NCBI GenBank assembly: GCA_016176465.1
Contig: JACOXD010000006.1
Location: forward strand, 71,878 to 135,877
Length of the DNA stretch: 64,000 bases
DNA from: Candidatus Daviesbacteria bacterium
GTDB taxonomy: Bacteria > Patescibacteriota > Microgenomatia > Daviesbacterales > UBA10151
Direction: 5' to 3'
The translations under genes were made by a program, and so were the position numbers. Below the pieces are notes generated by a model. It saw only the letters and a list, made by a program, of their open reading frames with translations, searched no databases and was not told where the DNA came from. Positions 20,420-64,000 of the stretch are shown here, in pieces. Within the stretch, counting starts at the first letter, position 1; every line of letters begins with the position of its first letter.

Positions 20420-20782
20420 TTATTTAGGTTGTGGATTTTTACAAAGAAAGCAGACCCCCTTATTGTAGGAAGGTGAAAATACAGATAAAGTTGCACTCAA
20501 AAGCGAGTTAACTGTTAAACCAACTGAGATTAAAATAACGACCAGACCCAAGATGATATTCAAAGGTGGGGCCAAAGAGAAAAAAAGAGCTAAGCCTATT
20601 ATCGTTAGTATTATCCAAAATATAGATGCTAGAATCCCTTTTAGTAGATAAAAGATTAAGACCACTAGATAGTGCCAAGGTTGATGAATATTTTTGTTAC
20701 TTGATTTTTTCACAGTGAGTTTATTAATATTTTTAAGATGTAAACACAATGAAATCTCCCCTACTTTCAGTAATTGTACCAA
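20420..20782 (-). CDS. Small multi-pass membrane protein (hypothetical; GtrA-like size, possible polyprenyl-sugar flippase)
   Basis: 120 aa with 2-3 predicted TM helices, divergent from a GtrB/DPM1-like GT2. No diagnostic motif was seen. Confidence 0.35.
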   Translation of the reverse strand: MVQLLKVGEISLCLHLKNINKLTVKKSSNKNIHQPWHYLVVLIFYLLKGILASIFWIILTIIGLALFFSLAPPLNIILGLVVILISVGLTVNSLLSATLSVFSPSYNKGVCFLCKNPQPK

Positions 20783-21555
20783 TATATAGGCAAGAAAAAA
20801 GAGTTGTTAAAGATTTAAGAAAAATCAAGGCTGTTTTAGATAAAATACGTTACCGATCTGAGCTAATTTGTGTGGTAGATGGAATGGTTGATGATACTTA
20901 TAAAAACGCTAAAGCTTTTGCTAAAAAAAGCAGCAATGTTAAACTCAGCGGATATGAAAACAATAGAGGTAAGGGTTACGCTGTTAGATATGGAATGGCC
21001 CAAAGCAAAGGAGATCTGATTGCCTTTATTGATTCTGGAATGGATTTAAATCCTAATGGTTTATCCATGCTCCTCGAGCATTTTGAATGGTACGATGCTG
21101 ACATTGTTGTAGGCTCCAAACGCCATCCTGTATCAAAGGTTGATTATCCAAAGATAAGAAGACTCTTTTCCTGGCTTTACCAGCTATTAACAAAGATTCT
21201 TTTTGGTTTAAAAATAAGAGATACCCAAGTTGGAATGAAGTTGTTTAAAAGAGAGGTTTTAGAGAAAGTACTACCTAGATTATTAGTTAAACAATATGCG
21301 TTTGATATAGAAATACTGGCAGTCGCTAACTATCTCGGGTTTAAGCGTATATATGAGGCACCAGTTGATTTGAAGTATGATTTTGGGAATAGCTCTATTT
21401 TACCCAGTAAACACTTTGTCAAAACAGTTAGCTTGATGTTAAAAGATACCTTAGCCATTTTTTATCGCTTAAGGATTCTTAATTACTATTCGGATGTTAA
21501 TCAAAGAAAATGGAAATTTGATCCCGAACTAAATTTCAGAGTTAATATTGGCTAA
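20749..21555 (+). CDS. GT2 glycosyltransferase, polyprenyl-phosphate sugar synthase-like (GtrB/DPM1-like)
   Basis: LSVIVPIYRQEKRV...VVDGMVDDT (GT2 N-terminal fold with a DxD-like motif), ~270 aa with a C-terminal amphipathic region as in DPM1/GtrB. Confidence 0.7.
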   Translation: MKSPLLSVIVPIYRQEKRVVKDLRKIKAVLDKIRYRSELICVVDGMVDDTYKNAKAFAKKSSNVKLSGYENNRGKGYAVRYGMAQSKGDLIAFIDSGMDLNPNGLSMLLEHFEWYDADIVVGSKRHPVSKVDYPKIRRLFSWLYQLLTKILFGLKIRDTQVGMKLFKREVLEKVLPRLLVKQYAFDIEILAVANYLGFKRIYEAPVDLKYDFGNSSILPSKHFVKTVSLMLKDTLAIFYRLRILNYYSDVNQRKWKFDPELNFRVNIG

Positions 21556-21567
21556 TCAAACCCTCTT

Positions 21568-22695
21568 ATGAGAATTCTCATCTTCTCCTGGAGAGATCCT
21601 AAACATCCTCTATCAGGAGGAGCAGAAAGAATGATTCACGAACATACAAAAGGCTGGATTAAAGCCGGACATGAGGTCACACTTTTTGCATCAGCGCTAA
21701 AGGGTTTACCTAAAGAGGAAGTTTTAGATAAGGTTAAAATTATTAGGCGAGGCTATCAGTATCTTGGAGTGCAAATATCAGCTTTTCTTTATTATCTTAA
21801 AAATTCAGGTAAATTTGATTTCCTGGTTGATCAATTCCATGGCATTCCTTTTTTTACACCGATTTATTCCAATAAACCAAAATTGGCAATAATTCATGAA
21901 ACAGCTAAAGAAGTTTGGTTTTTGAATTCACTTCCTAAACCTATAAATTGGTTTGTAAGTCTACTCGGATTTATAACCGAACCTTTAATCTTTAAGTTGT
22001 ATAAAAAAGTTCCTTTTATTACTGTCTCTAAGTCAACTAAATTAGATATTGCTAGGTTTGGGATTCCAGAGCAAAATATTAATGTTATTCAAAATGGAAT
22101 TTTTAAGCCAAAAAAAATTATTTTGCCAGCTAAAACTCAAATTCCAACTATTACATTCTTAGGGACTCTATCTAAAGACAAAGGGATAGAGGATGCAATC
22201 AAATGTTTTGCCATTCTAAATAAACAAGGCAAATTTAACTTTTGGGTAATAGGCAGAAAGGAAGGAGAAGTTTACTTTCAAAAATTATTAAGGTTTGCTA
22301 AATCCTTAGGCCTAAAAAAGAATTTAGAGTTTTGGGGATATGTATCTGAAGAGCAAAAATTTAAGCTTTTATCAAAGAGCCACCTTTTATTAAATCCATC
22401 AATTAGAGAGGGTTGGGGCTTGGTTAACATAGAGAGTAACTTGGTTAAAACTCCTGTTGTTGCCTACCCTTCACCTGGACTCATTGATTCTGTAAAAAAC
22501 AATATTAGCGGTATTATTTCTAAAGAAAAAACTCCTCAAAATTTAGCAAAAATAGTCTATGATTTATGTAAAGACAAGGAAAAATATGCTAAATTACAAA
22601 ACTCCTCTTATCTTTTTAGCCAAAAATTTGACTGGAAAAAATCTACCCAAATGAGTCTCAAATTAATAAATAATTTATATCAAAATAGCTCATAA
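21568..22695 (+). CDS. GT4 (GT-B fold) glycosyltransferase
   Basis: N-terminal MRILIFSWRDPKHPLSGGAERMIHE and C-terminal EGWGLVNIESNLVKTPVVAY (the E-x7-E region of GT4). Confidence 0.75.
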   Translation: MRILIFSWRDPKHPLSGGAERMIHEHTKGWIKAGHEVTLFASALKGLPKEEVLDKVKIIRRGYQYLGVQISAFLYYLKNSGKFDFLVDQFHGIPFFTPIYSNKPKLAIIHETAKEVWFLNSLPKPINWFVSLLGFITEPLIFKLYKKVPFITVSKSTKLDIARFGIPEQNINVIQNGIFKPKKIILPAKTQIPTITFLGTLSKDKGIEDAIKCFAILNKQGKFNFWVIGRKEGEVYFQKLLRFAKSLGLKKNLEFWGYVSEEQKFKLLSKSHLLLNPSIREGWGLVNIESNLVKTPVVAYPSPGLIDSVKNNISGIISKEKTPQNLAKIVYDLCKDKEKYAKLQNSSYLFSQKFDWKKSTQMSLKLINNLYQNSS

Positions 22696-22706
22696 TATAA
22701 ACTTGT

Positions 22707-23510
22707 ATGTCTAAACTCTCTATAATTATTCCTACCAAAAACGAAGAAAAAAATATTGTCCGTTTACTTAAATCTATTGATCCAAAATTAGCTGAGGTTA
22801 TTTTGGTTGATAACTTTTCAACCGATAAAACAGTTAAGCTGGCGACCCCCTATTTAAATAAACTATTTTTGGCAGGGCCTGAAAGATCAGCCCAGCGCAA
22901 TTTTGGAGCAAAAAAAGCTAGTGGAGATTATCTACTTTTTCTAGATGCAGATATGGCACTTTCTAAAAATTTGATTGAAAAATGTTTAAATGCTACATCA
23001 GAAAAAAAGACAATATGGGCAATTAAGGAAAAATCTATCGGCAGATCTTTTTGGGGGAAAGCTTTGGCGCTGGAGAGAAACTGTTATATCGACCAAGATT
23101 ATATAATAGCTGCGAGGTTTTTTTCTAAAAAAGATTTCCTAAAGATTGGAGGCTACGACCCTAACTTGCCTGCAGGGGAAGACTGGGATTTAACCCAAAG
23201 ATTTATTAATAAAGGCTACCGTATCCAAATTATTAATACTCCCATTATTCATCATGAATCTACTGATTCAATTCTTAATTTATTAAAAAAAGAATACTAC
23301 TATATCAAAAATATTCAAAAGTATGCTAAAAAGCATCCCAACGCCTTTAAGAATCAAAGTAGTATTATTTACAGGATAAAAATTTGGTTAAAATGTTGGG
23401 AAGAGTTGATTAAATATCCCCTTCTTACTTTAGTATTCCTTTTTTATAAGTTTTTAGTCTGGCTGATGTTTTTATCTCATTCCTATCTTTTTTCCAAAAC
23501 TAAACGATAA
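22707..23510 (+). CDS. GT2 glycosyltransferase
   Basis: LSIIIPTKNEEKNI...ILVDNFSTDKT...LFLDADM (DxD). Confidence 0.7.
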   Translation: MSKLSIIIPTKNEEKNIVRLLKSIDPKLAEVILVDNFSTDKTVKLATPYLNKLFLAGPERSAQRNFGAKKASGDYLLFLDADMALSKNLIEKCLNATSEKKTIWAIKEKSIGRSFWGKALALERNCYIDQDYIIAARFFSKKDFLKIGGYDPNLPAGEDWDLTQRFINKGYRIQIINTPIIHHESTDSILNLLKKEYYYIKNIQKYAKKHPNAFKNQSSIIYRIKIWLKCWEELIKYPLLTLVFLFYKFLVWLMFLSHSYLFSKTKR

Positions 23511-24607
23511 ATTTGCAATAACTTCTGATTAGTTTTTTTTACTGAATATAACTTTTGAAACTTAACTTTAGCAGCAGTCCCCATCTTTATTAATAACTTC
23601 TTATTCTTGATAAGTTTTTCCAGAGAGCTTACCAACTGATCTAAGTTTCCAGGTTCAATTACCAACCCTGTTTTATTATTATCTACAATCTCAGGAAGAG
23701 CATAGATTTTAGTAACTATACTGGGAACTGCAAAAGACGCAGCTTCTATTACTACCAAACCATATCCTTCAGCTTTAGATGGAACTAAAACCAACAGGTC
23801 TGCTTTAGGATAAATCGATCTTATTAAATCCTTTCTGGATATGTATCTTTTTTGACCAACATCCTTAGGTAACCTAAGTGATTTATCAACCTCACCTATA
23901 ATTGTCAATTTTAACTGAGGATACTTTTTTTTGAGAATAAAGTAAGCTTCCACTAATAATTCTCCCCCTTTTCTTCTAAACCATGTTCCTATAAATAAAA
24001 TGTGTATGCTCTTTCCAGAAACTTTTTTTTTAAATAAGGGAGTCTTTACTCCTGGAGGTATTACAAATATTGTTTTGGGATCGATCCCTAAGCTTTGATG
24101 TATTTTTTTAGCAAAGTTTGACCAAACTATTAAAAAATTCTCTCTTAGGTTTAAATTTTGATCATATATTTTGAAAAATGAAACTAAAGCTTTTTTTATT
24201 TGGTAGCCAAACTTTATTCTCCACCTACTCCATCCTAAATAATCTCTCAAAAAAAGATAATTACTAGAGCTGTCGGAGAGAACTACAGGCGTAGAATCAT
24301 TAGCAAGGTGCAGGTTATATCCATGGCAATGGATTAAATCAAATTTTTGGTTTAATTTTATAGTTTTTATTCCAGCATCAGGCGGTAAAATTTTAAACTT
24401 CATCAGTTTTGAAAAGATCTTTTCCAGGAAAGTAGTTTGTATCAATTTTTTATCTAGTGCTTCTTGGTAATAAGTATATTCAACATCCCTGGGAGGATAT
24501 TTAAGAAGAGTTTGAGTATAAGTGTTCTCTCCTCCCATTAAAAATTTTAAATTTCCTGGTTTTTTAGGATCAGCAGGACTAATTAGTAAAACCTTTATCT
24601 TCTTCAT
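23483..24607 (-). CDS. GT4 (GT-B) glycosyltransferase
   Basis: C-terminal PSKAEGYGLVVIEAASFAVPSIVT is the GT4 EX7E-like block. Confidence 0.7.
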   Translation of the reverse strand: MKKIKVLLISPADPKKPGNLKFLMGGENTYTQTLLKYPPRDVEYTYYQEALDKKLIQTTFLEKIFSKLMKFKILPPDAGIKTIKLNQKFDLIHCHGYNLHLANDSTPVVLSDSSSNYLFLRDYLGWSRWRIKFGYQIKKALVSFFKIYDQNLNLRENFLIVWSNFAKKIHQSLGIDPKTIFVIPPGVKTPLFKKKVSGKSIHILFIGTWFRRKGGELLVEAYFILKKKYPQLKLTIIGEVDKSLRLPKDVGQKRYISRKDLIRSIYPKADLLVLVPSKAEGYGLVVIEAASFAVPSIVTKIYALPEIVDNNKTGLVIEPGNLDQLVSSLEKLIKNKKLLIKMGTAAKVKFQKLYSVKKTNQKLLQIYRLVLEKR

Positions 24608-24652: not shown

Positions 24653-25705
24653 ATGACTTTAAGACAAACAATAGCTAATAAGAAAGCAGAGGTCCAATTC
24701 AGAGAAAAACTAGTCAAACAACATAAAGGAGAACAAAGTTATTTCCCCGGACAACCGGATAATCTAAGAATCTTAATTGAGTTAAAAAAAAGGCTGTCTG
24801 ATACAAAAAAGGATATATTGAACCTAAAAAAAGAAGGTTTGCTTAAAAGTCCATATTTGGAAATCGGTGCTGAAAAGTGTCAGAGAAGCATGTTATGCGA
24901 AAATCAATTCAAGATTAAAGGTATTGCAGCTGATATCTCCTTTCATAGCCTAGATTCTGCAAATTTTTTTGCTAAAAAACTCGGGTTTAAAAAAATGCCA
25001 TTAAGAATCTGCTTGGATGCTTATAATCTCCCTTTCCTAGATAACTGCATTCCCTTTATCTTTTTTTATCAAACACTTCATCATTTTCCAGATCCTTCTC
25101 CTATACTTAGAGAATCAGCCAGAGTTTTGCGCTCTGATGGAGTAGTGTTTATAAACGAGGAGCCTATAAAGCAACTTTTTAATTTAAATCTATTTAGGCG
25201 TGATTTTAATTTAAATAATCTTCAGAAGCTACTCAAACGCTTACTTATACTTCCTTTTATTTCAACCATTGGTAAATCAGAGATGGAGAGTGGAATTATA
25301 GAAACCTCTTTTTGGTTGGATAAATGGGAAAGTATCCTCAAAGATTTCGAGCGGGTTAAAGTTACCGCTACTCCCCTTTTTGGGAAAGGGCAGCTTTTAG
25401 AAAAAAATGCTCATCAAGGTTGGTTAAATCCCAATTTGTTAACCAAGGCTTTGATTGCAATTTTGGGTGGTGGAATCAAGGTAATAGCTACTAAGAATAA
25501 AAAACCTAGACTTGATTTTCTTTCAAATGATATCTTCGATATTTTAGCCTGCCCAGATTGCAAAGTGAGAGTGTCGCTTAAAAAAAGCGGCTCAAATTTA
25601 TTCTATTGTCAAAAGTGCGGCAGTGAGTTTCCAATCAAAAAGGATATCCTGATTTTTTTACCCAGGAGACAAAGACCTTTATTAAAAAAAATTTATGTAT
25701 CCTAA
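24653..25705 (+). CDS. SAM-dependent methyltransferase with a C-terminal Trm112-like zinc-ribbon
   Basis: Class I MTase core (LEIGAEKCQRS..., motif I-like) and a C-terminal DILACPDCKVRVSLKKSGSNLFYCQKCGSEFPIKKDILIFL (CxxC...CxxC, Trm112p/DUF343-like). Confidence 0.55.
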   Translation: MTLRQTIANKKAEVQFREKLVKQHKGEQSYFPGQPDNLRILIELKKRLSDTKKDILNLKKEGLLKSPYLEIGAEKCQRSMLCENQFKIKGIAADISFHSLDSANFFAKKLGFKKMPLRICLDAYNLPFLDNCIPFIFFYQTLHHFPDPSPILRESARVLRSDGVVFINEEPIKQLFNLNLFRRDFNLNNLQKLLKRLLILPFISTIGKSEMESGIIETSFWLDKWESILKDFERVKVTATPLFGKGQLLEKNAHQGWLNPNLLTKALIAILGGGIKVIATKNKKPRLDFLSNDIFDILACPDCKVRVSLKKSGSNLFYCQKCGSEFPIKKDILIFLPRRQRPLLKKIYVS

Positions 25706-26231
25706 AGTATCAATTATTTTTGTTAACTATAATGGAGGAAAACAGCCTATTGAGTGTTTAAAATCTATCTTTAGGCTTAATTATCCCCAAAGAAAAATAG
25801 AAATTATTGTAATTGATAACGGATCAACTGATGGTTCATTAAAGAAAATAAAAAGATTCCACAAGGTAAAACTAATAGAAAATAAAAGTAATCTTGGTTT
25901 TGCTGGATCTATTAATCAAGGAGTTTTAATTTCGAAGGGGGAATATATTTTTATGGGAAATGATGATATTGTCTTCGAAAAGGACAGCCTGCTTGAGATG
26001 GTTCAGTTTGCTAAGAGCCGTCCCGAGATAGGAGTAATTGGAGGAAAAATACTAGATAAAGTAAATCCAAAAAGAGTAATTTCTTTGGGATATTTTATGA
26101 ATAAAATAACTGGCAATGTTTATCCCAATAAGAGTGAGGATTTAAGTAAATCAATTGATTGGCTTCAAGGTTGTGCTTTGTTAATTTCCAGAAAGACTTT
26201 AAAAAAAGTAGGCCTTTTTGATCCGGTATAG
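25695..26231 (+). pseudogene. Truncated GT2 glycosyltransferase (N-terminal 178 aa only)
   Basis: VSIIFVNYNGGKQPIECLKS...IVIDNGSTDGS...MGNDDIV...ALLISRKTLKKVGLFDPV, then a stop where GT2 proteins continue (DEDYF...). The following 68-aa ORF (26218..26424) in another frame is not GT2-like. Confidence 0.5.
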
Positions 26232-26496
26232 AAATAAGATTCGATTTATGCTAAAAAACCTACCCTTAATTAATATTCTATCAATACTTTTTTTTCAATC
26301 TTTTCTAGTTATCCCCTACAGATTCTTGATCTTAAGAGACCGAAGATCTTTGCCCTATTTAAAAGGACTCTGGTGGAATATTTCAAATATTAAACAAACT
26401 TTTAAAGTAAGAGGAAAATTATGAAAAGCATTTAGCTTTTATTTTTCCTTTTGGAGTTATCTATTACACACTTGTGATTGATAAGGGCAGAAAACG

Positions 26497-27204
26497 ATGA
26501 AATTTGTTTTAATTTATTTAACTTCTCTTTGGCACAAAAGTGCTTGGTCAAATAATCAAACCCTTTCTTTTCTTATCAAGTCTGAAAAGAAGGCTAAAAT
26601 ATTAGACCTAGGAACTTATCGGCCGGAATTGATAATTGAAAGGGTTAAACAAATTAAAAATCCGGAAATTTATGTGGTAGATATAGACAAAGAAACGATT
26701 AAACTTTGTAAGAAGGCAGGACTTCACAGTTTACAAAGAAACCTAGAGAAACCCTTGCCCTTCAAAGATAATTTTTTTGATTTAATAACAGCAAACCAAA
26801 TAATAGAACACCTGGTCAATGTTGATTTATTTATTGAGGAAATTTACAGGGTCTTAAAACCCAACGGATATTTATTGATATCTACCGAAAATCTATCCAG
26901 CTGGCATAATATTTTTGCATTACTTATGGGTTGGCAAGCATTCTCACAACATATATCAAAAAAACAAGGGATTGGAAACCCTATCAGATTACAAAAAGAT
27001 AGTCATACCGAAAATTCCATTCACATCCATATTTTTACACTTAAAGGATTGTTGGAGCTTTTAGAGTTAAATAATTTTAAGATCATAAATACATTTGGCA
27101 GCGGATATTACCCTTTACCAACTTTTTTTGCAAAGTTTTTTACTAAGCTGGATATTTGCCATTCTGCATTTATTGGCGTAAAGGCGCAAAAAATAAAGCA
27201 ATAA
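26497..27204 (+). CDS. Class I SAM-dependent methyltransferase (Methyltransf_11-like)
   Basis: ILDLGTYRPE (motif I), FDLITANQIIEHL, and LKPNGYLLIST (motif post II). Confidence 0.7.
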   Translation: MKFVLIYLTSLWHKSAWSNNQTLSFLIKSEKKAKILDLGTYRPELIIERVKQIKNPEIYVVDIDKETIKLCKKAGLHSLQRNLEKPLPFKDNFFDLITANQIIEHLVNVDLFIEEIYRVLKPNGYLLISTENLSSWHNIFALLMGWQAFSQHISKKQGIGNPIRLQKDSHTENSIHIHIFTLKGLLELLELNNFKIINTFGSGYYPLPTFFAKFFTKLDICHSAFIGVKAQKIKQ

Positions 27205-27206
27205 AT

Positions 27207-27971
27207 ATGAAATACTCATATGTACGATCTCTGGCTTGCCCAAGCTGTCTTCAGAGTTTGTCTAAAGGTGTTCATAAAATAAGTTGTCCCCAAACTCATG
27301 CAAAATTTCAGAAAAAGTCTGGGATTTGGGACTTTTTATCTTTTAGAAGAGCTTCTCCCTCCCAAATTGAAAATGAAAGTCAGCACGCAAAAGGACCCTG
27401 GGGCAGAATAAGTGATGGATCTTATGAGATTTTAGCTGCTTTTGCCAGGGGGAATAAAACCCTAGATATTGCTTGTGGTGAAGGCTGGATCGAAGCTTTA
27501 GCACCTGAAACTGTTGGTTTAGATTTTTCTTTATCAGCACTGAAAAAAGCCAAGAAAAATGGAGCTAAAAATTTAGTATGGGGCAATGCCGAACATTTAC
27601 CCTTCTTAGACAATACCTTTGACTTAACGATTAACTCGGGAAGTTTAGAAAATATCGAAAACCCAAAAAAAGCGATCATGGAGATGGCTCGAGTATCCAA
27701 AATGCAAATTATGGTGGTTCATCGAGAATTCAATTTACCTTTTTTTAGATCAGTTCGAAATCTCTTCTCTTTTATTTTAAAAATCAAACATCAACCGGTA
27801 GAGAAACCTCTTCTATTTAGAGAGCTAACTAAAATGCTGGTACAGGCTAACTTAAAAGTAGTTTACAAGGGACATTGGACTCTTCCTTTAAATTACGGTC
27901 GAGCCATTAATTTTCTGCCTGAATTTAGCAAAGTTAATAGCTGTTTTTTTGTAATAACGATAAGGCAGTGA
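27207..27971 (+). CDS. SAM-dependent methyltransferase with an N-terminal Cys4 zinc-ribbon (Trm112-like)
   Basis: N-terminal LACPSCLQSL...ISCPQTHAKF; MTase motifs TLDIACGEGW and FDLTINSGSLENI. The likely start is ATG at 27207 (MKYSYV) rather than 27156. Confidence 0.6.
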   Translation: MKYSYVRSLACPSCLQSLSKGVHKISCPQTHAKFQKKSGIWDFLSFRRASPSQIENESQHAKGPWGRISDGSYEILAAFARGNKTLDIACGEGWIEALAPETVGLDFSLSALKKAKKNGAKNLVWGNAEHLPFLDNTFDLTINSGSLENIENPKKAIMEMARVSKMQIMVVHREFNLPFFRSVRNLFSFILKIKHQPVEKPLLFRELTKMLVQANLKVVYKGHWTLPLNYGRAINFLPEFSKVNSCFFVITIRQ

Positions 27972-45830: not shown

Positions 45831-45831
45831 T

Positions 45832-46929: not shown

Positions 46930-46943
46930 ATTTAAGTAAACAG

Positions 46944-47834: not shown

Positions 47835-47844
47835 TATAAAATAA

Positions 47845-50359: not shown

Positions 50360-50366
50360 TCTTATT

Positions 50367-57248: not shown

Positions 57249-57354
57249 AAAGTTATTTTTTAAATATTTTGACTTTTACTTGAAGCTAAAGCTTGTAAAA
57301 AAATACCTTATTGCATTTTTTTTTGAAATAACATATTCTAAAAAAGCCACTCAC

Positions 57355-58464
57355 ATGCCCAAAAAGAGAGAATTAAAAATAGGTAATAAAATTATAGATG
57401 ACTCTTCTGACTGCTTTGTTGTAGCTGAGATTGGACAAAATCACCAAGGAGATGTTGAGGTTTGCAAAAGACTTTTTGAGGCTGCCAAGTTCTGTGGTGC
57501 TGATGCGGTAAAATTGCAAAAAAGAAATAATCGAACTTTATATACTAGAAAATTCTTTGACTCCCCGTATAACTTTGAAAATGCTTTTGGCCCAACCTAT
57601 GGCAAGCATAGACAAGCTCTGGAATTTAATAAAAAGGAGTATAGAAAGCTTAAAAAATATGCTGAAAAGTTAGGTTTAATTTTTTTTGCAACTGCCTGGG
57701 ATGAAAGCAGCGGCGACTTTTTGGAAGATTTAGATGTTCCAGCTTTCAAAATTGCTTCAGCAGATCTTATCAACACTCCCCTTTTAAAATATATCGCCAA
57801 ATTTAAAAAACCAATGATTGTAAGTACAGGAGCAGCCACCATAGACGATGTCAAAAGGGCTTATCAAGAAGTAATGCCAATAAACAACCAGCTTTCTTTA
57901 CTCCACTGCACTGCTGTTTATCCTGCCTCAGCAGAGTATCTAAACTTAAAAGTCATTGAAACTTACCGCCAAGAGTTTCCGGAGATTGTCATTGGATTTT
58001 CCAACCATTTTAACGGCATTTCTGTTGACCCAGTGGCTTACTGTTTAGGAGCCCGAATTATTGAAAAACATTTTACTTTAAATCGGGCAATGCAAGGCTC
58101 AGATCATTCTTTTTCGCTAGAGTTTGAAGGAATGAGGAAGCTGGTTAGGGATCTAAGAAGAGTCCGCCTGGCACTGGGAGATGGCTTAAAAAAGTTTTAT
58201 CCTGAGGAAGAACCAGCTAAGTATAGAATGGGAAAGTGCATTGTCACTACAAAATCACTGCCTGCAGGGCATATCTTGACAAAAAAAGATCTGGCTCTAA
58301 AATCACCCTGTGAAGGTCTACCCCCTTATTTATTAGATGAGTTAATTGGCAAAAAAACTATTGTTGCCTTAAAAACAGACCAGCCTCTTTCTCTAAAGCA
58401 TTTAGAATCTTTTAAAAAGCCTGCCAGAAAGACAAATGGTCATCAATCCATCTTCCCTACTTAA
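57355..58464 (+). CDS. NeuB-family sialic-acid-type (ulosonic acid) synthase with C-terminal SAF domain
   Basis: CFVVAEIGQNHQGDVEVCKRLFEAAKFCGADAVKLQKR (the AEIGxNHNG...A.K.Q NeuB signature) and a C-terminal SAF/antifreeze-like block GKCIVTTKSLPAGHILTKKDL. The likely start is ATG at 57355 (MPKKREL). Confidence 0.85.
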   Translation: MPKKRELKIGNKIIDDSSDCFVVAEIGQNHQGDVEVCKRLFEAAKFCGADAVKLQKRNNRTLYTRKFFDSPYNFENAFGPTYGKHRQALEFNKKEYRKLKKYAEKLGLIFFATAWDESSGDFLEDLDVPAFKIASADLINTPLLKYIAKFKKPMIVSTGAATIDDVKRAYQEVMPINNQLSLLHCTAVYPASAEYLNLKVIETYRQEFPEIVIGFSNHFNGISVDPVAYCLGARIIEKHFTLNRAMQGSDHSFSLEFEGMRKLVRDLRRVRLALGDGLKKFYPEEEPAKYRMGKCIVTTKSLPAGHILTKKDLALKSPCEGLPPYLLDELIGKKTIVALKTDQPLSLKHLESFKKPARKTNGHQSIFPT

Positions 58465-59362
58465 AGACTTAAATAAAAATAACCTTAAGTCCAAAGTCAT
58501 TCAGTCTGATAAGTTTGGTAGAGCATTTTTGGCTTTAAATCGAATTACCCAAACAGGCAAGGTTGAACAACACGATCAAGCATCTGATATTACTTTTATT
58601 CTCCAAGGAGAAGCCAAATTGGAAAAAGATGGAGAAATTGAGGATAAAACCTTAAGATCTTTACATGAATGGCAGGGAACAAAAATTAAAAATGGAAGAT
58701 ACTTAGCTGTTAAAAAAGGAGACTTATTAATTATTGAGCCTGGAAGTCCTCATCGGTTTATTATTACAAGATCATCCCAGTTAGTCTATTTAACTTTTAA
58801 GAAATATCTTTCTGATTATATAGAAATAGAAAAATTAGATCCTAATCTAATTGAAAAAATAAAAAAGATTGAAGGAATAATAATGGATGTTGACGGGACA
58901 ATGACTGATGGAAAGGTTTTGGTAAATGATCAGGGAGAGGAGTTTGCCTCTTTTTCTCGGATTGACTCTTTAGCGCTTTTACCCTGGCAAGGAATGGGTA
59001 AAAAAGTAGGCGTTATCTCTAGAGAAGAGATCTCTATTGCCAGTGCTAGAGCCAAAAAGTTAAAGATTAATTGTGTCCAAAATATTAAGGATAAACTTCA
59101 AGCTGCAGAAAAAATGATTAAAGCTTGGAAGCTAAGCTGGGATCAAGTTTGTTTTATAGGAGATGATGTTAATGATATTTCCCTTTTGCAAAAGGTTGGC
59201 TTTTCTACTTGTCCAAAAGATGCCCAGCCTCAAGTTTTAGAAGTTGTTGATTTAGTACTTCCTAAAAAAAGAGGAGACAGTGTTATAAGAGAACTGCTAG
59301 ATTTAATATTTTTAGTACAACTTGGCAAATATCCAGAAGTTTACGAGAGAGAAAAATCTTAA
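58436..59362 (+). CDS. Cupin domain fused to a KdsC-like HAD phosphatase (ulosonate-phosphate phosphatase)
   Basis: The C-terminal half IMDVDGTMTDGKVLVNDQGEEFASFSRIDSLALLP...CFIGDDVNDISLL matches KdsC/YrbI-type HAD (DxDG...GDD.ND). The N-terminal ~140 aa has a cupin-like beta-barrel block (ITFILQGEAKLEKDGE...LLIIEPGSPHRF). Confidence 0.65.
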   Translation: MVINPSSLLKDLNKNNLKSKVIQSDKFGRAFLALNRITQTGKVEQHDQASDITFILQGEAKLEKDGEIEDKTLRSLHEWQGTKIKNGRYLAVKKGDLLIIEPGSPHRFIITRSSQLVYLTFKKYLSDYIEIEKLDPNLIEKIKKIEGIIMDVDGTMTDGKVLVNDQGEEFASFSRIDSLALLPWQGMGKKVGVISREEISIASARAKKLKINCVQNIKDKLQAAEKMIKAWKLSWDQVCFIGDDVNDISLLQKVGFSTCPKDAQPQVLEVVDLVLPKKRGDSVIRELLDLIFLVQLGKYPEVYEREKS

Positions 59363-60189
59363 TGGAAAGATTTAGATTAGATGGAAAAATAGCGGTTGTA
59401 ACAGGAGCGCTTGGGTTACTTGGACCTACTTTTTGTGAAGGTTTGTTGGAGGCTGGTGCAACAGTTATAGGAATTGACTTAACAACCCAAGTCCCAGAAA
59501 GATTTAGGGTTTTACAAGAAAGGTTTGGTGATGATAAAGCAGGAGTGGTAAGAGCAGATATTACTTATAAATCTGAAGTTGATGAGGCTCTGGCTGCATG
59601 TATTAGAAGGTTTGGTGTTCCAGCTATTCTAGTAAATGCTGCTGGGATAGATAAGCCTCCCTTGGCAAGTGCCAGATCCTACCCGCTTGAAGAGATTCCC
59701 CTGGAGGTAAATAGAAGATTTCTGGAGGTTAATGTGCTTGGAACATTTAGGATGATGCAGGTTTTTGGGGGTGCGATGAGAAAGCATGAAATCAGGGGAA
59801 GTATTATTAATATTGGTTCACAATATGCTGATGTTGTACCTGACCCTCATTTTTATGATCATTTAAAAGGATTTTTAAAACTCCCTATATATGGGGCATC
59901 CAAAGCTGCTTTGATTGAACTAACAAGAGAGTTCGCAGTTCACTTTGGAAGATACGGAATTAGAGTTAACGCACTTTCTCCTGGAGGTATTTATAATGAA
60001 CAAAAACCACAAGATCCAGAGTTTTTAAGAAAGTTTTCTGAAAGAGTTCCGTTAGTTAGAATGGAATATCCTCATAGAATGGGCTTTGCTCATGAGTTAA
60101 TTGGGCCACTTTTATTTTTAGCTTCTGAGGCTTCATCTTATATGACTGGAGAAAATTTAAGAGTTAATGGAGGATTTACTGCTCTCTAA
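59362..60189 (+). CDS. Short-chain dehydrogenase/reductase (classical SDR)
   Basis: Has GKIAVVTGALGLLG (TGxxxGxG), NAAG and YGASKAALIELTRE (YxxxK). Local GC is about 50%, much higher than the window average. Confidence 0.8.
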   Translation: MERFRLDGKIAVVTGALGLLGPTFCEGLLEAGATVIGIDLTTQVPERFRVLQERFGDDKAGVVRADITYKSEVDEALAACIRRFGVPAILVNAAGIDKPPLASARSYPLEEIPLEVNRRFLEVNVLGTFRMMQVFGGAMRKHEIRGSIINIGSQYADVVPDPHFYDHLKGFLKLPIYGASKAALIELTREFAVHFGRYGIRVNALSPGGIYNEQKPQDPEFLRKFSERVPLVRMEYPHRMGFAHELIGPLLFLASEASSYMTGENLRVNGGFTAL

Positions 60190-60194
60190 ATTTA

Positions 60195-60941
60195 ATGGTT
60201 AGAATTAAAAAAAATAAAAACAACTCTATACCCAAAGTACTAGGGGTGGTGGGAGCCAGATCTGGCTCAAAATCTATTCCTTATAAAAATATTTATCCCC
60301 TAGCTGGAAAACCCTTAATGGCCTGGATTATTGAGGCTGCTAAAAATGCCAAATTTATCACCAGACTGATACTTTCAACAGACTCTGAAGAGTTTGCTAA
60401 AATAGGCAGGATCTACGGCGCAGAAACGCCTTTTTTAAGGCCTTTAGAACTGGCAACAGATGAGGCAGATGATATATCCTATCTGACCCATGCTGTTTCC
60501 TACCTTGAAAAAAATGAAAACTGGAAACCAGATATTATCTTAAGGCTTCCTGCAACCTCTCCTTTTTGTAGTAGTGAAAGTATAGATGCTTGCATCCAAA
60601 TTTTATTAGATGATCCTAAAGCTTCCTCTGCTAGAACTATAAAAAAAACTCCTAAGCACCCTTTTAAACAATGGAAGATAGAGGGAGATGAGCTAAAACC
60701 TTTTTTGCCAAAGGAAATTACAGGCTTAAAAGAACCGTCTCAAGCCTCAAGGCACTCTTTTCCCCCAGCTTATGCCCATGTCGATGTAATAGCTGTCCGC
60801 TATAATACTTTAATGAAAGAAGGGCTACTGACTGGAAAAAGAACCCGTTTTGTCTTGTTAAATAGTGAGGCGGCTATTGATATAGATGATTTAAATGATT
60901 TTTTACTTGCAGAAATAATTATTAAAAGAAAACTTAGCTAG
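60195..60941 (+). CDS. CMP-ulosonic acid synthetase (acylneuraminate/Kdo cytidylyltransferase, CTP_transf_3 family)
   Basis: VLGVVGARSGSKSIPYKNIYPLAGKPLMAWII...LSTDSEEFAKIGRIYGAE is the canonical NeuA/KdsB N-terminal signature. Confidence 0.8.
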   Translation: MVRIKKNKNNSIPKVLGVVGARSGSKSIPYKNIYPLAGKPLMAWIIEAAKNAKFITRLILSTDSEEFAKIGRIYGAETPFLRPLELATDEADDISYLTHAVSYLEKNENWKPDIILRLPATSPFCSSESIDACIQILLDDPKASSARTIKKTPKHPFKQWKIEGDELKPFLPKEITGLKEPSQASRHSFPPAYAHVDVIAVRYNTLMKEGLLTGKRTRFVLLNSEAAIDIDDLNDFLLAEIIIKRKLS

Positions 60942-60948
60942 ATTAGAT

Positions 60949-62835
60949 ATGGAGACAGAAGGAAAATTGCAATTTATCCCTATTTCTGAAATTGAAAGAG
61001 TTTGGGATGGTAAAATCTTAGCAGATATTTTAAGAATTAATAGCCTGTCTATGATTATGGAGGCAGGTTCTGGACATCCTGGGACTTGTTTAAGTAGCGC
61101 CGAGATTATTGCCACCTTATTTTCTTCTGAGTTAGTTAACCCTAATGATTTTGCTAAAGATCCTTCAGATATTTTCTTTTCTTCAAAGGGGCATGATGCT
61201 CCTTTAATTTATGCTGCCTTAATAGCTACAGGTAGATTGCCGGAGGACAATTTACATAAATTAAGAAGATTAAATGGTCTACCAGGGCATCCTGATATTC
61301 ATACTCCAGGCATTACTACAAATACTGGTTCTTTAGGTATGGGATTATCTAAAGCTGCTGGAATGATTGAAGCAAATCGTTTACAAGGTAAAAAAGGCAG
61401 AGTATTTGTTTTACTGGGGGATGGTGAGCTACAAGAAGGACAAAATTATGAAGCGTTAAGATATGCTACTCAACACAAAATGGGTGAGCTGATAGCTATA
61501 GTAGACCATAATAAAATACAATCTGACACTTGGGTTTGGCAAGTTGGAGACTTAGGAGATCTCGTTGGAAAGTTTAAAAGTTTTGGTTGGGAAGTTGCTA
61601 GGTGTGATGGAAATAATGTTGATGAGCTTCTAGAAGCTTTTGACCACTTTAGAGACTTTACAGATAAACCAAAAATTCTAATTGCTGATACTCTAAAAGG
61701 GGCCGGAGTTACATTTATGGAGTCCTCAAACTTTGGTGAGGAGCTGCAATTTTATCCTTTCCACTCAGGAGCCCCAAGTCTAGAACACTACCAGAAAGCA
61801 ATTACTGAATTAAGAGAAAGAATAGATTCAAAATTAGTCTTATTAGATAGAGATCCAATCCAGTTAGTTTTAAAAGAGATTCCCCATCGAGCTAGCTTAG
61901 TTAATCCTGAGCGTTTAATTTTAAGTTATGGAAATCATTTGGCTACACTGGCTAATACTCATCCAGATATTATTGTTTTAGATGCAGATTTACTAAAGGA
62001 CCATAATTTACAACCCTTTCAAGAAGTTGCACCCGATAGATTTATAGAGTGCGGTATTTCTGAACAACATATGACTTCAGTTGCCGGAGGATTAGCCAGA
62101 AAAGGAAATCTACCTATAACCCATACCTTTGCTGCTTTTCAGTTGAGAGCTTTAGAGCAAATGTATAACAATGCTACAGAAGAAGGGAAGATTATATATG
62201 TAGGATCACTAGCTGGACTTTTGCCAGGAGGTCCGGGACACTCTCATCAAGCTGTAATGGATATTGCCTCCTTTAGAGCAATTCCAAACCTTACTATGAT
62301 TGAACCAAGTTGCGAGCAAGAAGTAAGAATGGCTTTAGACTGGGCAGTGAAAGAAAATCCTCAAAGTAGCTATCTTCGCTTAGTGAGCATTCCTGTTGAG
62401 ACTCCATATATCCTTCCACAGGAATATAAATTAACACTTGGCAGAGGGATAGAACTAATATCTGGAGATGATGCTGTTTTATTTGCTTATGGCCCAGTAA
62501 TGCTTTCTGAGGCAACAAGAGCTTCCATATTTTTAAGAAATCTAGGGATATCTTTATCTGTCATTAACCTTCCCTGGTTAAACAGAGTTGATTTAAGATG
62601 GTTAAAAAACACTTTATTACCTTACCAAATAGTGTTCACTTTAGATGATCACTACATCAGCGGGGGTCAAGGGGAATTAATTGCTGTAAATGTCGCCAGA
62701 ATGTCTGGGAAAAAACCTAAAGTAATTTCTTTTGGGGTGGAGGAGATTCCTGTTTGTGGATTAAATACTGAGGTCCTAAAATACCATGGTCTTGATGCAG
62801 AAAGTTTAGCAGAGAAGGCAAGAAAGATCCTTTAA
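60949..62835 (+). CDS. Transketolase (fused N-terminal TPP-binding and C-terminal pyrimidine/transketolase-C domains, 628 aa)
   Basis: Has GSGHPGTCLSSAEIIATLF (the TPP-binding GHPG motif), GDGELQEGQNYEA, and a C-terminal Pyr/TK-C region. Confidence 0.7.
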   Translation: METEGKLQFIPISEIERVWDGKILADILRINSLSMIMEAGSGHPGTCLSSAEIIATLFSSELVNPNDFAKDPSDIFFSSKGHDAPLIYAALIATGRLPEDNLHKLRRLNGLPGHPDIHTPGITTNTGSLGMGLSKAAGMIEANRLQGKKGRVFVLLGDGELQEGQNYEALRYATQHKMGELIAIVDHNKIQSDTWVWQVGDLGDLVGKFKSFGWEVARCDGNNVDELLEAFDHFRDFTDKPKILIADTLKGAGVTFMESSNFGEELQFYPFHSGAPSLEHYQKAITELRERIDSKLVLLDRDPIQLVLKEIPHRASLVNPERLILSYGNHLATLANTHPDIIVLDADLLKDHNLQPFQEVAPDRFIECGISEQHMTSVAGGLARKGNLPITHTFAAFQLRALEQMYNNATEEGKIIYVGSLAGLLPGGPGHSHQAVMDIASFRAIPNLTMIEPSCEQEVRMALDWAVKENPQSSYLRLVSIPVETPYILPQEYKLTLGRGIELISGDDAVLFAYGPVMLSEATRASIFLRNLGISLSVINLPWLNRVDLRWLKNTLLPYQIVFTLDDHYISGGQGELIAVNVARMSGKKPKVISFGVEEIPVCGLNTEVLKYHGLDAESLAEKARKIL

Positions 62836-64000
62836 ACTGAAACTATTTCTAAAATTTTATTAGCAAATCTCTCTGTTGATCTGCCATCATTCATCTGCTT
62901 CCAAACCCTAGATGCTGCCCACATTCTTTCTCTAGTGGCTCGATCATTTATAATTGAATTGAGTATTCGAGGGAAATCTCTCCAGCCTCTAACTACCGCA
63001 CTTGATCCATCTAAAACCACACTTGGATCTGGAGGAAGCTCGTTTGTCCACTCAGGTCTTAGTCTCATATTAGCAGGAATCATGGCGTGAACTACTAGTC
63101 TTGGTCCTTTTCCTCCTCTCATCCCCTTATCAAAAATAGCCTCTCTTCCCGTTGTTGAGGTATCTGTTACTACAATATCTGCAGCCTGCCTAATCTCATC
63201 CATTGAGTAGCGCAATCTTCCATCTTTATTTCTGATCATAGTATCAACCCCATGATTTCCTAAACTTTCTAAAACTCCAGCATATCTGGCAGCAATTAAA
63301 GGATCATTATACTCATTTGGATGAACTCTGAAAGTAAATTTATATCTTTGGGTATCTAGTTCTTTTATTGCATGTTGAACTAAGTCATTTCCGGTATGGA
63401 AGGTAGCTTCTGTTTTAGTTGCAGCATAAACTATAAACCACTCATCATCTTCAACTCCCAACTCTTTTCTAACTCTTTCATAATTCTCTTCCGTATCTTC
63501 ATAAAAAAACCTATCATCAGCCGGATTACCGACCACAACTCCTCTTCCTTGGTAAGCGCTTACATATTTTATACTTTGCTCTAAAGATCTCTCACTGGCA
63601 AAAAATGCAAAATCAGGCACTACCAACAATCCTTGTCTAGCTAAAACCCGATCATAATATGCCATAAAGGGAGAATTATCTTCATACTTAATAGTTCTTT
63701 CTCCCCTACTTATTCCCTGTGCTATTAAGACTTGTTCTAGATGTTTAGTTGGATCTGAACCACTGACTACTAAATCACCTGTTAACCGCATTAAGTCCTT
63801 AGAAGGTGAAAATCTAGTTGCTCTTAATCCTAGCGAATCAATCTTTCCCTGAAGCGATCTGCTTGCTGCCCCTCCGGCCACTACAAAAACGTCTACGGCA
63901 TCTGCCAGAAGTAATTCTATAACGGGTATTCCAGCTTTATAAGCTCCCTCATCATATACCCCCCAAATAATTCTTTGTCTATCATGATATTCTCTAGGAA
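62832..64000 (-). CDS. Putative KpsC/KpsS-like (Capsule_synth) ulosonic-acid transferase, 5' end beyond the window
   Basis: The frame stays open from the reported GTG (63881) to the window edge. It contains LVQHAIKELD (QxxxKE) followed 13 aa later by FRVHPNEY (HP), the two motifs associated with KpsC/KpsS beta-Kdo transferases. GC is about 45%. Confidence 0.4.
   Translation of the reverse strand, partial: PREYHDRQRIIWGVYDEGAYKAGIPVIELLLADAVDVFVVAGGAASRSLQGKIDSLGLRATRFSPSKDLMRLTGDLVVSGSDPTKHLEQVLIAQGISRGERTIKYEDNSPFMAYYDRVLARQGLLVVPDFAFFASERSLEQSIKYVSAYQGRGVVVGNPADDRFFYEDTEENYERVRKELGVEDDEWFIVYAATKTEATFHTGNDLVQHAIKELDTQRYKFTFRVHPNEYNDPLIAARYAGVLESLGNHGVDTMIRNKDGRLRYSMDEIRQAADIVVTDTSTTGREAIFDKGMRGGKGPRLVVHAMIPANMRLRPEWTNELPPDPSVVLDGSSAVVRGWRDFPRILNSIINDRATRERMWAASRVWKQMNDGRSTERFANKILEIVSV

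Follow-up and report, generated by a model that had tools for sequence, protein, structure and literature searches.

Bacteria of the Candidate Phyla Radiation (CPR) have tiny genomes and an unknown envelope chemistry and live attached to hosts. What kind of surface structure such an organism builds, and whether it does so with genes of its own or with a recently imported gene set, is the question raised by a run of glycan genes that begins upstream of rho in a 64,000-bp stretch of contig JACOXD010000006.1 (hereafter the window). An initial annotation of this DNA had described the run as a low-GC, horizontally exchanged surface-glycan island. Rho (18,480-19,751, minus strand) and its neighbours show 72-86% identity to metagenome-assembled genomes (MAGs) of Candidatus Daviesbacteria, and two proteins of the glycan cluster are 100% identical to HYS91_02940 and HYS91_03010 from a Candidatus Daviesbacteria MAG, on a contig of 169,313 bp; the organism, an ultra-small groundwater bacterium, is thus a member of the Microgenomates within the CPR (Patescibacteria). 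The reading favoured here, with reasonable though far from complete confidence, is that of a native envelope-glycan supercluster that combines polyprenyl-phosphate-dependent glycosylation outside the membrane with an acidic sugar resembling 3-deoxy-D-glycero-D-galacto-nonulosonic acid (Kdn).

All open reading frames (ORFs) of at least 100 aa between 20.4 and 64 kb were scanned against Pfam and NCBIfam, and 31 of these 37 ORFs gave a direct match to a glycan family. Among the remaining six, the ORFs for proteins of 888, 957, 540 and 395 aa were resolved otherwise and two are probably not genes. The 120-aa ORF at 20,420-20,782, with a TTG start and no family match, was rejected as a gene, as was the ORF at 36,730-37,047, which lies antisense within a double glycosyltransferase gene. 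With AlphaFold models searched by Foldseek and a test of relatives against Pfam added to the family scans, all 35 credible genes from 20,749 to 64,000 were found to be glycan-related. The view of the initial annotation that essentially every gene from 20.4 kb onwards has such a role is thereby borne out, homology searches having failed to move most of the ORFs to other functions; the start that it placed at 20,420, in contrast, falls on the doubtful TTG ORF, and the first real gene begins at 20,749. The repertoire comprises six glycosyltransferases (GTs) of the GT2 family (one frameshifted), four of the GT4 family (one a double module), six membrane proteins of the GT-C type and one TagF-like enzyme, together with four S-adenosylmethionine (SAM)-dependent methyltransferases, one NodU/CmcH carbamoyltransferase, nine sugar-nucleotide enzymes and five genes of an ulosonic-acid module. 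The methyl-, carbamoyl- and formyltransferases and the GT-C-like proteins expected earlier are therefore all present, and O-methylation, O-carbamoylation, N-formylation and an ulosonic acid are each predicted at the family level.

The genes are densely packed, with a coding density of 98.8% (20,749-63,881) as compared with 87.6% in the housekeeping block (bases 1-19,751). The long co-directional run on the plus strand that had been pointed out from 44,955 to 62,835 consists of 18 genes that overlap by up to 29 bp or lie up to 31 bp apart, and operons are predicted from this spacing. Their tight packing stands as claimed, but scans of 19.7-39 kb gave no above-chance support for operons: 52 promoter-like sites were counted as against 67.7 in shuffled sequence, i.e. 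fewer, and terminator-like sites occurred in average number, which speaks neither for operons nor against them. Glycan genes do reach the window end, as had been stated, but that end is not a border. The minus-strand TagF-like gene (62,832-64,000) has no upstream stop before base 64,000, so that the cluster extends beyond the window and almost certainly continues past this base; the length of the locus is at least 43 kb. Among the related glycan loci compared here (L084-L088 and L090), L085 and L087 carry, after the TagF-like gene, a gene for a protein of ~450 aa without a family match and then two more glycosyltransferases. At the divergent genes 43,746-44,933 (minus strand) and 44,955-45,830 (plus strand) the start codons are only 21 bp apart, which leaves too little room for two promoters of the usual kind; possibly the promoters are located within coding sequence, or one of the start codons has been assigned wrongly. 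Two convergent gene pairs overlap by 4 bp at their stop codons (37,972-37,975 and 62,832-62,835), leaving no terminator space between the opposing transcription units.

Glycosylation outside the membrane is suggested by the six GT-C-type proteins. Three are large paralogs: one of 888 aa (28,015-30,681, plus strand), one of 957 aa (37,972-40,845, minus strand) and one of 962 aa (40,818-43,706, minus strand; HYS91_02940). The 888-aa and 957-aa proteins are 26% and 33% identical to the 962-aa protein (E=3e-73, over the full length, and E=3e-163, respectively). The others are a PMT_2/ArnT-like protein of 464 aa (30,674-32,068, plus strand; PF13231, 52 bits) with ~12 transmembrane (TM) helices by hydropathy, a polytopic protein of 395 aa (43,746-44,933, minus strand) and a protein of 540 aa (55,626-57,248, plus strand; HYS91_03010). 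The 395-aa protein has no direct Pfam match; it has 443 relatives, 25 of 38 sampled matching the GT87 family PF09594 (best E=2e-14), and is probably a distant GT87 relative in the GT-C clan. Hydropathy profiles indicate 11-14 membrane segments in the 888-, 957-, 962- and 540-aa proteins. In the 888-aa protein ~11 TM helices at the N-terminus precede a large outside domain, and a further TM helix anchors the C-terminus.

AlphaFold models were examined for the 962- and 540-aa proteins, the 957- and 888-aa proteins being included by full-length homology. The 962-aa model (mean per-residue confidence, pLDDT, 89.2; predicted template-modelling score, pTM, 0.85) consists of a 13-helix membrane module (residues 2-427), outside alpha/beta and beta-sandwich parts, a C-terminal TM helix and a cytoplasmic helix. 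Its top Foldseek matches in the PDB are AglB (E=1e-6), AftD, STT3, PglB, AftA and DPY19 (E=1e-6 to 1e-4), and its outside domain matches GH42 C-terminal and GATase1-like domains. The 540-aa model (pLDDT 75, pTM 0.78) finds PglB, STT3, AftA, ArnT (5f15) and ALG9 at the top. Almost all top matches of both models are GT-C enzymes with a probability of 1.00; since the TM-scores to the solved enzymes are low (0.27-0.41), the matches are evidence of fold class only, and at this level the models place both proteins in the GT-C class. GT-C enzymes have a catalytic acidic residue in the first outside loop, just after the first TM helix (TM1). A glycine (G42) and an aspartate (D44) are invariant in 31 sequences that include all three large paralogs, the 888-aa protein having both columns, and both residues come just after TM1; the 540-aa family (11 sequences) likewise has an invariant aspartate (D29) after TM1. 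With the loop position read from the helix boundaries of the models, D44 and D29 are candidate catalytic residues.

The large paralogs belong to a family with >100 full-length homologues of the 962-aa protein, the named ones being from Daviesbacteria, Curtissbacteria, Chisholmbacteria and Microgenomates. On the 894-kb contig L090 the 962-type and 957-type genes stand in tandem (44% and 42% identity), and an 888-type gene (48%) is followed by a PMT_2 gene (34%) and then by the orthologue of the disrupted GT2 gene of the window. In L088 the gene for a 963-aa homologue precedes one for an uncharacterised protein of 394 aa, in a neighbourhood that also holds five methyltransferases and several GT4 genes. 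The 540-aa family is rare, with only 10 homologues besides itself in 5.8 billion sequences, none with a Pfam match. Many homologues of the 962-aa protein, like this protein itself, match PF10131 (PTPS_related) in its C-terminal part; the family is placed in the GT-C clan CL0111 with unknown function (PMC7801869). The match of the 962-aa protein is, however, confined to profile positions 479-621 (29 bits), and the 957-aa and 888-aa paralogs do not match. We know of no member of PF10131 with demonstrated activity.

For their sugar donors, these enzymes would use polyprenyl-(di)phosphate-linked sugars, and support from context is provided by two short GT2 proteins. The first (20,749-21,555, plus strand; 268 aa; PF00535, 81 bits) is the first gene of the cluster and has no TM helix; its best named relatives are the polyprenyl-phosphate glycosyltransferases PgfS, PpgS, ArnC and AglJ, with NCBIfam scores (PgfS 55, PpgS 39 and ArnC 37 bits) all far below the cut-offs, and it is a candidate lipid-phosphate-sugar synthase. 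The second (54,940-55,629, plus strand; 229 aa; PF00535, 77 bits) also lacks a TM helix and is closest among named proteins to ArnC, the undecaprenyl-phosphate 4-formamido-arabinose transferase (66.5 bits versus a cut-off of 529).

Two known systems show a comparable layout. The GT-C-based envelope assembly of mycobacteria and corynebacteria (AftA-D, EmbA-C, the GT87 enzyme PimE, and PpgS with Rv3779) likewise employs multiple GT-C paralogs with large outside domains; the cluster also encodes a probable GT87 relative and putative short GT2 polyprenyl-phosphate sugar synthases, and AftD and AftA rank with the best structural matches of its GT-C proteins. No similarity of the cluster proteins to the Emb or Aft families could be detected at the sequence level, however, their outside domain has a GH42-C-terminal or GATase1-like fold followed by a C-terminal TM anchor, and the host is of a CPR lineage with a genome of roughly 1 Mb. 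The three-component glycosylation of teichoic acids in Gram-positive bacteria (a CsbB/GtrB-type GT2, a flippase and a YfhO/GtrC-type GT-C) similarly pairs a short GT2 with a GT-C enzyme acting outside, but neither a GtrA/GtcA flippase nor a match to YfhO (PF09586) was found in the window.

The second short GT2 stands at the end of a plus-strand block of amino-sugar genes (45,832-55,629), where a third parallel was found. Ahead of the block lies a GT2 (44,955-45,830; 291 aa; PF00535, 84 bits), the first gene of the 18-gene run, followed by a DegT sugar aminotransferase resembling PseC and LegC (45,832-46,929; 365 aa; PF01041, 315 bits; PseC 276 and LegC-family 227 bits, below cut-off) and by a GNAT-type acyltransferase (46,923-47,834; 303 aa; PF00583, 29 bits), which probably N-acylates a sugar. 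Next come a formyltransferase (47,845-48,606; 253 aa; PF00551, 75 bits), read from its context as a sugar N-formyltransferase, with 5vyt (a GDP-perosamine formyltransferase), ArnA and WlaRD as its closest solved relatives, and an extended short-chain dehydrogenase/reductase (SDR; 48,603-49,523; 306 aa; PF01370, 92 bits), an epimerase/reductase resembling GDP-fucose synthase (Fcl 135 bits, below cut-off). These are followed by another GT2 (49,523-50,359; 278 aa; PF00535, 57.5 bits), a LegB-like NDP-hexose/HexNAc (N-acetylhexosamine) 4,6-dehydratase (50,343-51,344; 333 aa; TIGR04180 LegB, 431 bits versus a cut-off of 475; PF16363, 229 bits), a sugar-1-phosphate nucleotidyltransferase (51,345-52,058; 237 aa; PF00483, 128 bits) whose best NCBIfam models, MurU, archaeal GlmU and mannose-1-phosphate guanylyltransferase, are all below cut-off, and a second extended SDR (52,045-52,956; 303 aa; PF01370, 83 bits).

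The block ends with a second DegT aminotransferase (52,953-54,047; 364 aa; PF01041, 338 bits), a formyltransferase with a C-terminal domain that resembles the N-terminal part of ArnA (54,044-54,964; 306 aa; PF00551 and PF02911; best solved relatives the ArnA formyltransferase domain 6pih/1yrw, 81 bits) and the ArnC-like short GT2, followed by the 540-aa GT-C protein. Both formyltransferases of the block are closest to ArnA, WbkC and WlaRD. The logic and nearly the gene order from 52,953 to 57,248 are those of the Arn (PmrHFIJKLM) pathway, which modifies lipid A with 4-amino-4-deoxy-L-arabinose, and ArnT is among the matches of the 540-aa protein. The differences are several: no ArnD deformylase and no ArnE/F flippase are present in the window, a UDP-glucuronic acid decarboxylase is not among the assigned families, the host is not known to have lipid A, and the scores are far below the equivalog cut-offs (ArnB 184-220 versus 631, ArnA 91-115 versus 777, ArnC as given above). 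Because the upstream enzyme here is a 4,6-dehydratase, its product is probably a 6-deoxyhexose rather than a pentose sugar. The four genes may thus work like Arn by analogy of logic and gene order, but do not belong to the Arn family. In one relative, L084, the locus with the 540-aa homologue (5,446-13,280) holds an aminotransferase, an acyl carrier protein, a GNAT, a phosphopantetheinyl transferase and an AMP-ligase beside Wzm/Wzt, which suggests that relatives N-acylate the amino sugar with the help of the carrier protein; the window keeps a GNAT, 31% identical to the L084 GNAT that adjoins the carrier-protein and phosphopantetheinyl-transferase genes, and has a formyltransferase in place of the carrier-protein-type genes.

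The right end of the window (57,280-64,000) holds the predicted ulosonic-acid module. It begins with a NeuB-family synthase with a SAF domain (57,280-58,464, plus strand; 394 aa; PF03102, 259 bits), which scores 287 against a cut-off of 400 for NeuB_NnaB and 236 against 340 for PseI and has SpsE (1vli) as its best solved relative. The next gene (58,436-59,362, plus strand; 308 aa) encodes a fusion of an N-terminal cupin (about residues 1-135; Cupin_2, E=1e-6) to a haloacid dehalogenase-type (HAD) phosphatase of the KdsC/Kdn-9-phosphate phosphatase type; the HAD domain is above the 107-bit cut-off of the KdsC model TIGR01670 (120.5 bits), and its best solved relative is 3e81, which we take to be BT1713, the Kdn-9-phosphate phosphatase of Bacteroides. 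Only ten other full-length cases of this fusion were found, and among the module loci the cupin fusion is confined to the window and its three closest loci (L085, L086 and L087). Then follow, on the same strand, a classical SDR oxidoreductase (59,362-60,189; 275 aa; PF13561, 131 bits), a cytidylyltransferase of the CMP-ulosonic-acid synthetase type (60,195-60,941; 248 aa; PF02348, 71 bits; PseF, 114 bits, below cut-off) and a single-chain transketolase-family thiamine-diphosphate enzyme (60,949-62,835; 628 aa; PF00456, PF02779 and PF02780). The TagF-like GT-B enzyme (Glyphos_transf; PF04464, 38 bits) is convergent here and is cut by the window end; its homologues have 431-438 aa, and it adjoins the transketolase gene in L085 and L087 as well.

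Since a KdsC-type phosphatase accompanies NeuB, a NeuB-type route through a phosphorylated intermediate is implied. Such a route, from mannose-6-phosphate and phosphoenolpyruvate through Kdn-9-phosphate and Kdn to CMP-Kdn, is established in Bacteroides (B. thetaiotaomicron) and Prymnesium (P. parvum), and the module resembles it in the same phospho-route logic and in having a NeuB-family synthase, a HAD phosphatase of the KdsC/Kdn-9-phosphate phosphatase type and a PF02348 cytidylyltransferase side by side (PMC6200933). Kdn polymers also occur in the walls of the monoderm Streptomyces, where Kdn teichulosonic acid offers a precedent for an acidic-sugar wall polymer (PMC11481543, PMC7831098). 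The module differs in that its phosphatase is fused to a cupin, that an SDR and a transketolase are conserved in it, with an aldehyde dehydrogenase in some relatives, and that the neighbouring transferase is TagF-like. In addition, the HAD domain misses the Kdn-9-phosphate phosphatase equivalog (116 versus 180 bits) and the NeuB and cytidylyltransferase matches are below all equivalog cut-offs, so that the identity of the sugar is a guess; the best guess from these families is a Kdn-like product. From the nonulosonic-acid module recognised earlier, a NeuB-family route to a 3-deoxy-ulosonic acid via a phosphorylated intermediate is retained, but the term nonulosonic is not established.

The alternative that the whole right half is a single pathway, in which NeuB makes an N-formylated 5,7-diamino nonulosonic acid of the legionaminic or pseudaminic type, accounts for the near-cut-off LegB score, for PseC and LegC being the best models for both aminotransferases, for the PseH-like GNAT and PseF-like cytidylyltransferase, and for the location of all these genes in one co-directional run. 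It is nevertheless held to be decidedly improbable. No hydrolysing 2-epimerase (LegG/NeuC, PF02350) and no PseG-type hydrolase was matched by any ORF of the window, which makes such a product less likely, and the partner of NeuB is in every case a KdsC-type sugar-phosphate phosphatase, an enzyme without a function in the legionaminic and pseudaminic routes. The NeuB module also occurs in L085, L086 and L087 without LegB or LegC neighbours, and the ArnC-like GT2 and the GT-C gene lie between the amino-sugar and NeuB blocks, a position that suggests a separate use of the formamido sugar. A teichoic-acid module of the CDP-alditol type (transketolase, SDR, cytidylyltransferase and TagF) was also considered and judged less likely, the cytidylyltransferase being of the PF02348 and not of the IspD/TarI or TagD type, and NeuB and the KdsC-type phosphatase being fixed partners.

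The presence of a transketolase in such a module called for a separate comparison. As a full-length canonical enzyme with human-type transketolases as its best solved relatives (256 bits), it could be the ordinary pentose-phosphate enzyme of the genome, beside glycan genes by chance, the more so as CPR bacteria rely on the non-oxidative pentose-phosphate pathway. Its neighbourhoods make this decidedly improbable. All six module genes, from NeuB to the TagF-like gene, are conserved together in L085, L086 and L087 (39-74% identity) despite rearrangements, with an aldehyde dehydrogenase, a gene resembling KDPG (2-keto-3-deoxy-6-phosphogluconate) aldolase, APH-type kinases, or an enolase-superfamily dehydratase with a reductase as extras. 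A scan of metagenomes with the transketolase yielded 16 independent contigs (L091-L106) with proteins 45-52% identical and GC contents of 28-71%; in 13 of the 16 the gene directly preceding the transketolase encodes an SDR, and genes for the CMP-transferase, NeuB or HAD are near it wherever the contig flank is long enough. In L102, for example, the order is SAM synthetase, S-adenosylhomocysteine hydrolase, NeuB, HAD, SDR, aldehyde dehydrogenase, CMP-transferase, transketolase, GDP-mannose dehydratase, a Wzx-like gene and a GT4. More distant transketolases (~40% identity) are split into two genes, and no module gene was detected beside them. Because the co-location recurs in three loci and in the metagenome contigs, the transketolase is best read from gene neighbourhood as a dedicated part of a widespread module and not as an incidental housekeeping neighbour, and the SDR-transketolase pair seems to be a general accessory of ulosonic-acid clusters in unrelated bacteria. 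The two enzymes may supply or isomerise a sugar phosphate, or may instead remodel the product. In L091 the pair adjoins a NeuB gene and two NeuC-like (UDP-GlcNAc-2-epimerase-like) genes, which weakens a simple supply of sugar phosphate by the transketolase and hints at a remodelling role. No published description of a transketolase-NeuB, nonulosonic or Kdn module was found in a literature search of incomplete coverage, and nothing relevant was found in the literature on nonulosonic acids in CPR bacteria and on glycosylation in Patescibacteria.

The left block holds the genes for decoration and further glycosyl transfer, all on the plus strand except one. After the first GT2 come a GT4 with the GT-B fold (21,568-22,695; 375 aa; PF00534, 105 bits, and PF13439), a GT2 (22,707-23,510; 267 aa; PF00535, 79 bits) with a 52%-identical homologue beside rho in L001, and the only minus-strand gene of the block, a GT4 (23,483-24,607; 374 aa; PF00534, 94 bits). 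A SAM methyltransferase (24,653-25,705; 350 aa; PF08241; 42% identity to L001) has a C-terminal tail resembling Trm112 or a zinc ribbon (Trm112_arch, 26 bits). The disrupted GT2 (25,695-26,412) covers only positions 1-121 of the 168 of PF00535: its N-terminal half is the ORF 25,695-26,231, its C-terminal part lies in another frame (about 26,227-26,412) and ~50 residues are missing. The 314-aa orthologue in L090 is intact, and a tblastn search with it splits across the two frames, so the gene is either a pseudogene or an assembly error. Two further SAM methyltransferases (26,497-27,204, 235 aa, and 27,156-27,971, 271 aa) jointly match PF08241, PF13489 and PF13847. Beyond the first two GT-C genes lie a GT4 (32,092-33,219; 375 aa; PF00534, 82.5 bits), the NodU/CmcH-family carbamoyltransferase (33,216-34,970; 584 aa; PF02543 139, PF16861 202 and NodU 107 bits), which probably O-carbamoylates a sugar, a fourth SAM methyltransferase (34,963-35,661; 232 aa; PF13489, 93.5 bits, and PF08241) and a 777-aa fusion of two GT4 modules (35,642-37,975; PF00534, 186 bits in two stretches).

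Whether this gene set is an import was assessed from composition, borders and relatives. A GC content of 25-32%, as against 38-40% in the housekeeping block, had been reported; the values measured are 34.0% and 35.6%, and 500-bp windows below 28% GC make up only 1% of the cluster. Mean per-gene GC is slightly lower in the cluster than in the housekeeping block (33.7% versus 36.1%, p=0.001), but GC at third codon positions (GC3) is 27.1% versus 26.3% (p=0.40), which is not the deviant composition and codon usage of an island. Since GC3 is equal in both blocks, the small shift reflects protein composition, for example that of membrane proteins, and not foreign codon usage. No tRNA, integrase or transposase gene is present at the left border (the nearest tRNAs are at 16.9-17.1 kb), and no ORF of the window has a mobility domain in Pfam.

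The relatives give a more divided picture. Seven Daviesbacteria relatives (L001, L003, L005-L008 and L010) were compared at the rho site with tblastn. No homologues of cluster genes were found upstream of rho in L003, L005, L006, L007 and L010, and L010, which has the most similar Rho (86%), carries unrelated genes there, namely a Laminin_G/SH3 protein, a PIN-TRAM protein and unknowns; L001, in contrast, has homologues of three left-end genes at this site (42-52% identity), and in L008 the matches are partial and concern two genes. The variability expected of an exchanged locus was thus seen at the rho site, where presence among close relatives is patchy, but it is not complete. Related clusters also differ in their sugar-nucleotide modules. 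A recent acquisition, i.e. a low-GC surface-polysaccharide island inserted beside rho, would explain the empty rho sites, the slightly lower per-gene GC and the different sugar modules, but is rated as improbable in view of the equal GC3, the unremarkable left border, the genes shared with L001 and L008 at the same site, and the GT-C genes, which, together with their pairings in L090, recur in other Microgenomates-type genomes. By their homologues, the GT-C genes appear to be common to such genomes, with the sugar-nucleotide modules and the rho-adjacent site as the variable parts. Because the core GT-C genes and pairings are conserved elsewhere, though the rho site varies, the cluster is best read as a native envelope-glycan locus with exchangeable sugar modules and not a recent foreign island.

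For this native supercluster, a scheme in four layers can be proposed. In the cytoplasm, the nucleotidyltransferase and the LegB-like 4,6-dehydratase would feed the two DegT aminotransferases, the two formyltransferases, the GNAT and the two extended SDRs, yielding N-formylated or N-acylated amino-6-deoxy sugars, while the separate module of NeuB-type synthase, cupin-KdsC fusion, SDR, CMP-transferase and transketolase would provide a CMP-activated 3-deoxy-ulosonic acid. Cytoplasmic assembly and decoration would be the task, as judged at the family level, of the six GT2 (one disrupted), the four GT4, the four methyltransferases and the carbamoyltransferase. In the third layer the short soluble GT2 proteins encoded at 20,749 and 54,940, resembling ArnC, PpgS and DPM1, would load single sugars onto polyprenyl phosphate, and in the fourth the six GT-C-fold enzymes, i.e. 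the three large paralogs and the PMT_2-type, GT87-like and rare 540-aa proteins, would use these lipid donors outside the membrane. The Arn-like genes would make a formamido sugar, load it onto polyprenyl phosphate and transfer it outside the membrane, and as no deformylase is present the sugar may be transferred intact. Building the acidic sugar into a polymer would probably fall to the TagF-like enzyme.

Several points weigh against this scheme. The low TM-scores of the GT-C models and the equivalog cut-offs missed in the ulosonic-acid module have been given above, as has the neighbourhood of the L091 pair; the matches of the short GT2 proteins to ArnC, PpgS and PgfS are far below the family cut-offs, the operons are predicted from spacing, and the scheme does not account for the transketolase, the SDR and the cupin. 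Moreover, the family scans of the window returned no initiating phosphoglycosyltransferase, Wzx or ABC (ATP-binding cassette) exporter, Wzy, LCP ligase or GtrA-type flippase, so that the window does not by itself hold a Wzx/Wzy- or ABC-dependent locus. The scheme of assembly and export thus has gaps, and the missing genes may be situated past base 64,000; among related clusters, L084 has Wzm/Wzt, and L090 and L102 have a gene of the Wzx type.

As probable acceptor the initial annotation had named a teichoic-acid-like polymer, an S-layer or pilin protein, or a lipid-linked glycan. A system mainly for protein glycosylation (O- or N-linked, on surface-layer protein or pilin), and not for a wall polymer or glycolipid, would fit with the oligosaccharyltransferases AglB, STT3 and PglB as top structural matches of the GT-C proteins, with the PMT_2-family protein and with the lack of an LCP ligase in the window. 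The polymer-building GT-C enzymes AftD, AftA and EmbB score equally well, however, the TagF-like enzyme and six GT-C genes suggest polymer elaboration, and no acceptor protein gene is evident in the cluster; protein glycosylation as the main function is accordingly thought rather unlikely, though it is the strongest of the alternatives. A bolder extension of the envelope-glycan reading, advanced only tentatively and with low confidence, is that the locus holds two undescribed things, a transketolase/SDR ulosonic-acid pathway and a Microgenomates-specific trio of ancient GT-C paralogs. The transketolase and SDR, with the cupin in CPR bacteria and the aldehyde dehydrogenase elsewhere, would then build or remodel a sugar other than Kdn, Kdo and neuraminic, legionaminic or pseudaminic acid, for example a chain-extended or ulosaric acid, which the TagF-like enzyme would polymerise into a wall polymer resembling teichulosonic acid. 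The trio would be an extracytoplasmic glycan assembly line in an ultra-small bacterium, analogous to mycobacterial arabinan and mannan synthesis.

Some features of the flank deserve mention. The housekeeping block encodes MreB, arginyl-tRNA synthetase, argininosuccinate synthase and lyase, ComEC, leucyl-tRNA synthetase (LeuRS), an M23/LysM peptidase, nucleoside diphosphate kinase (NDK) and Rho. LeuRS is encoded in two ORFs (14,116-16,484, minus strand) that overlap by 46 bp, one of 188 aa for the N-terminal catalytic part and one of 615 aa for the editing, catalytic and anticodon-binding parts. A two-piece LeuRS recurs at 8,783-11,266 in L001 and at 16,686-19,067 in L008, in both with the pieces 12 nt apart, which suggests that the enzyme is naturally split and that the split is not an assembly error. 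The argininosuccinate lyase ORF (9,837-10,937) covers only positions 97-312 of the Lyase_1 profile, with a 101-bp overlap with the argininosuccinate synthase gene and a 431-bp gap (10,938-11,368) before the lyase; a truncation or frameshift at the 5' end of the lyase gene is possible. A TAA-GTG junction at 12,776/12,777 was considered as a recoding event and rejected as an ordinary stop-start junction. Between rho and the first glycosyltransferase lies a gap of ~1 kb (19,752-20,748) without a credible gene, in a genome otherwise 88-99% coding. Short hairpins at about 20,013-20,097 in this gap have the common motif TCCGTCTGC, and the gap may be a long rho leader; Rfam gave nothing credible for it, the sole match being psRNA14 (28.6 bits versus a gathering score of 60), and the Rfam scan returned only four tRNAs.

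As a whole, the locus is of a familiar kind, a polysaccharide or glycosylation gene cluster; its noteworthy parts are the Microgenomates GT-C paralog trio and the transketolase-containing ulosonic-acid module. At least 43 kb is spent on one glycan system, while related genomes are in contigs of ~0.9-1.1 Mb, and the size of this investment points to a surface glycan that is central to the biology of the organism, perhaps in attachment, phage defence or envelope integrity. The large GT-C family, found here only in Microgenomates-type genomes, now has a high-confidence model and a candidate catalytic aspartate, and the Arn-like route may deliver a formamido sugar outside the membrane. The NeuB-phosphatase-SDR-CMP-transferase-transketolase module recurs in unrelated bacteria across the whole GC range sampled; its chemistry appears to be undescribed, and solving it would add a new branch to ulosonic-acid biosynthesis.

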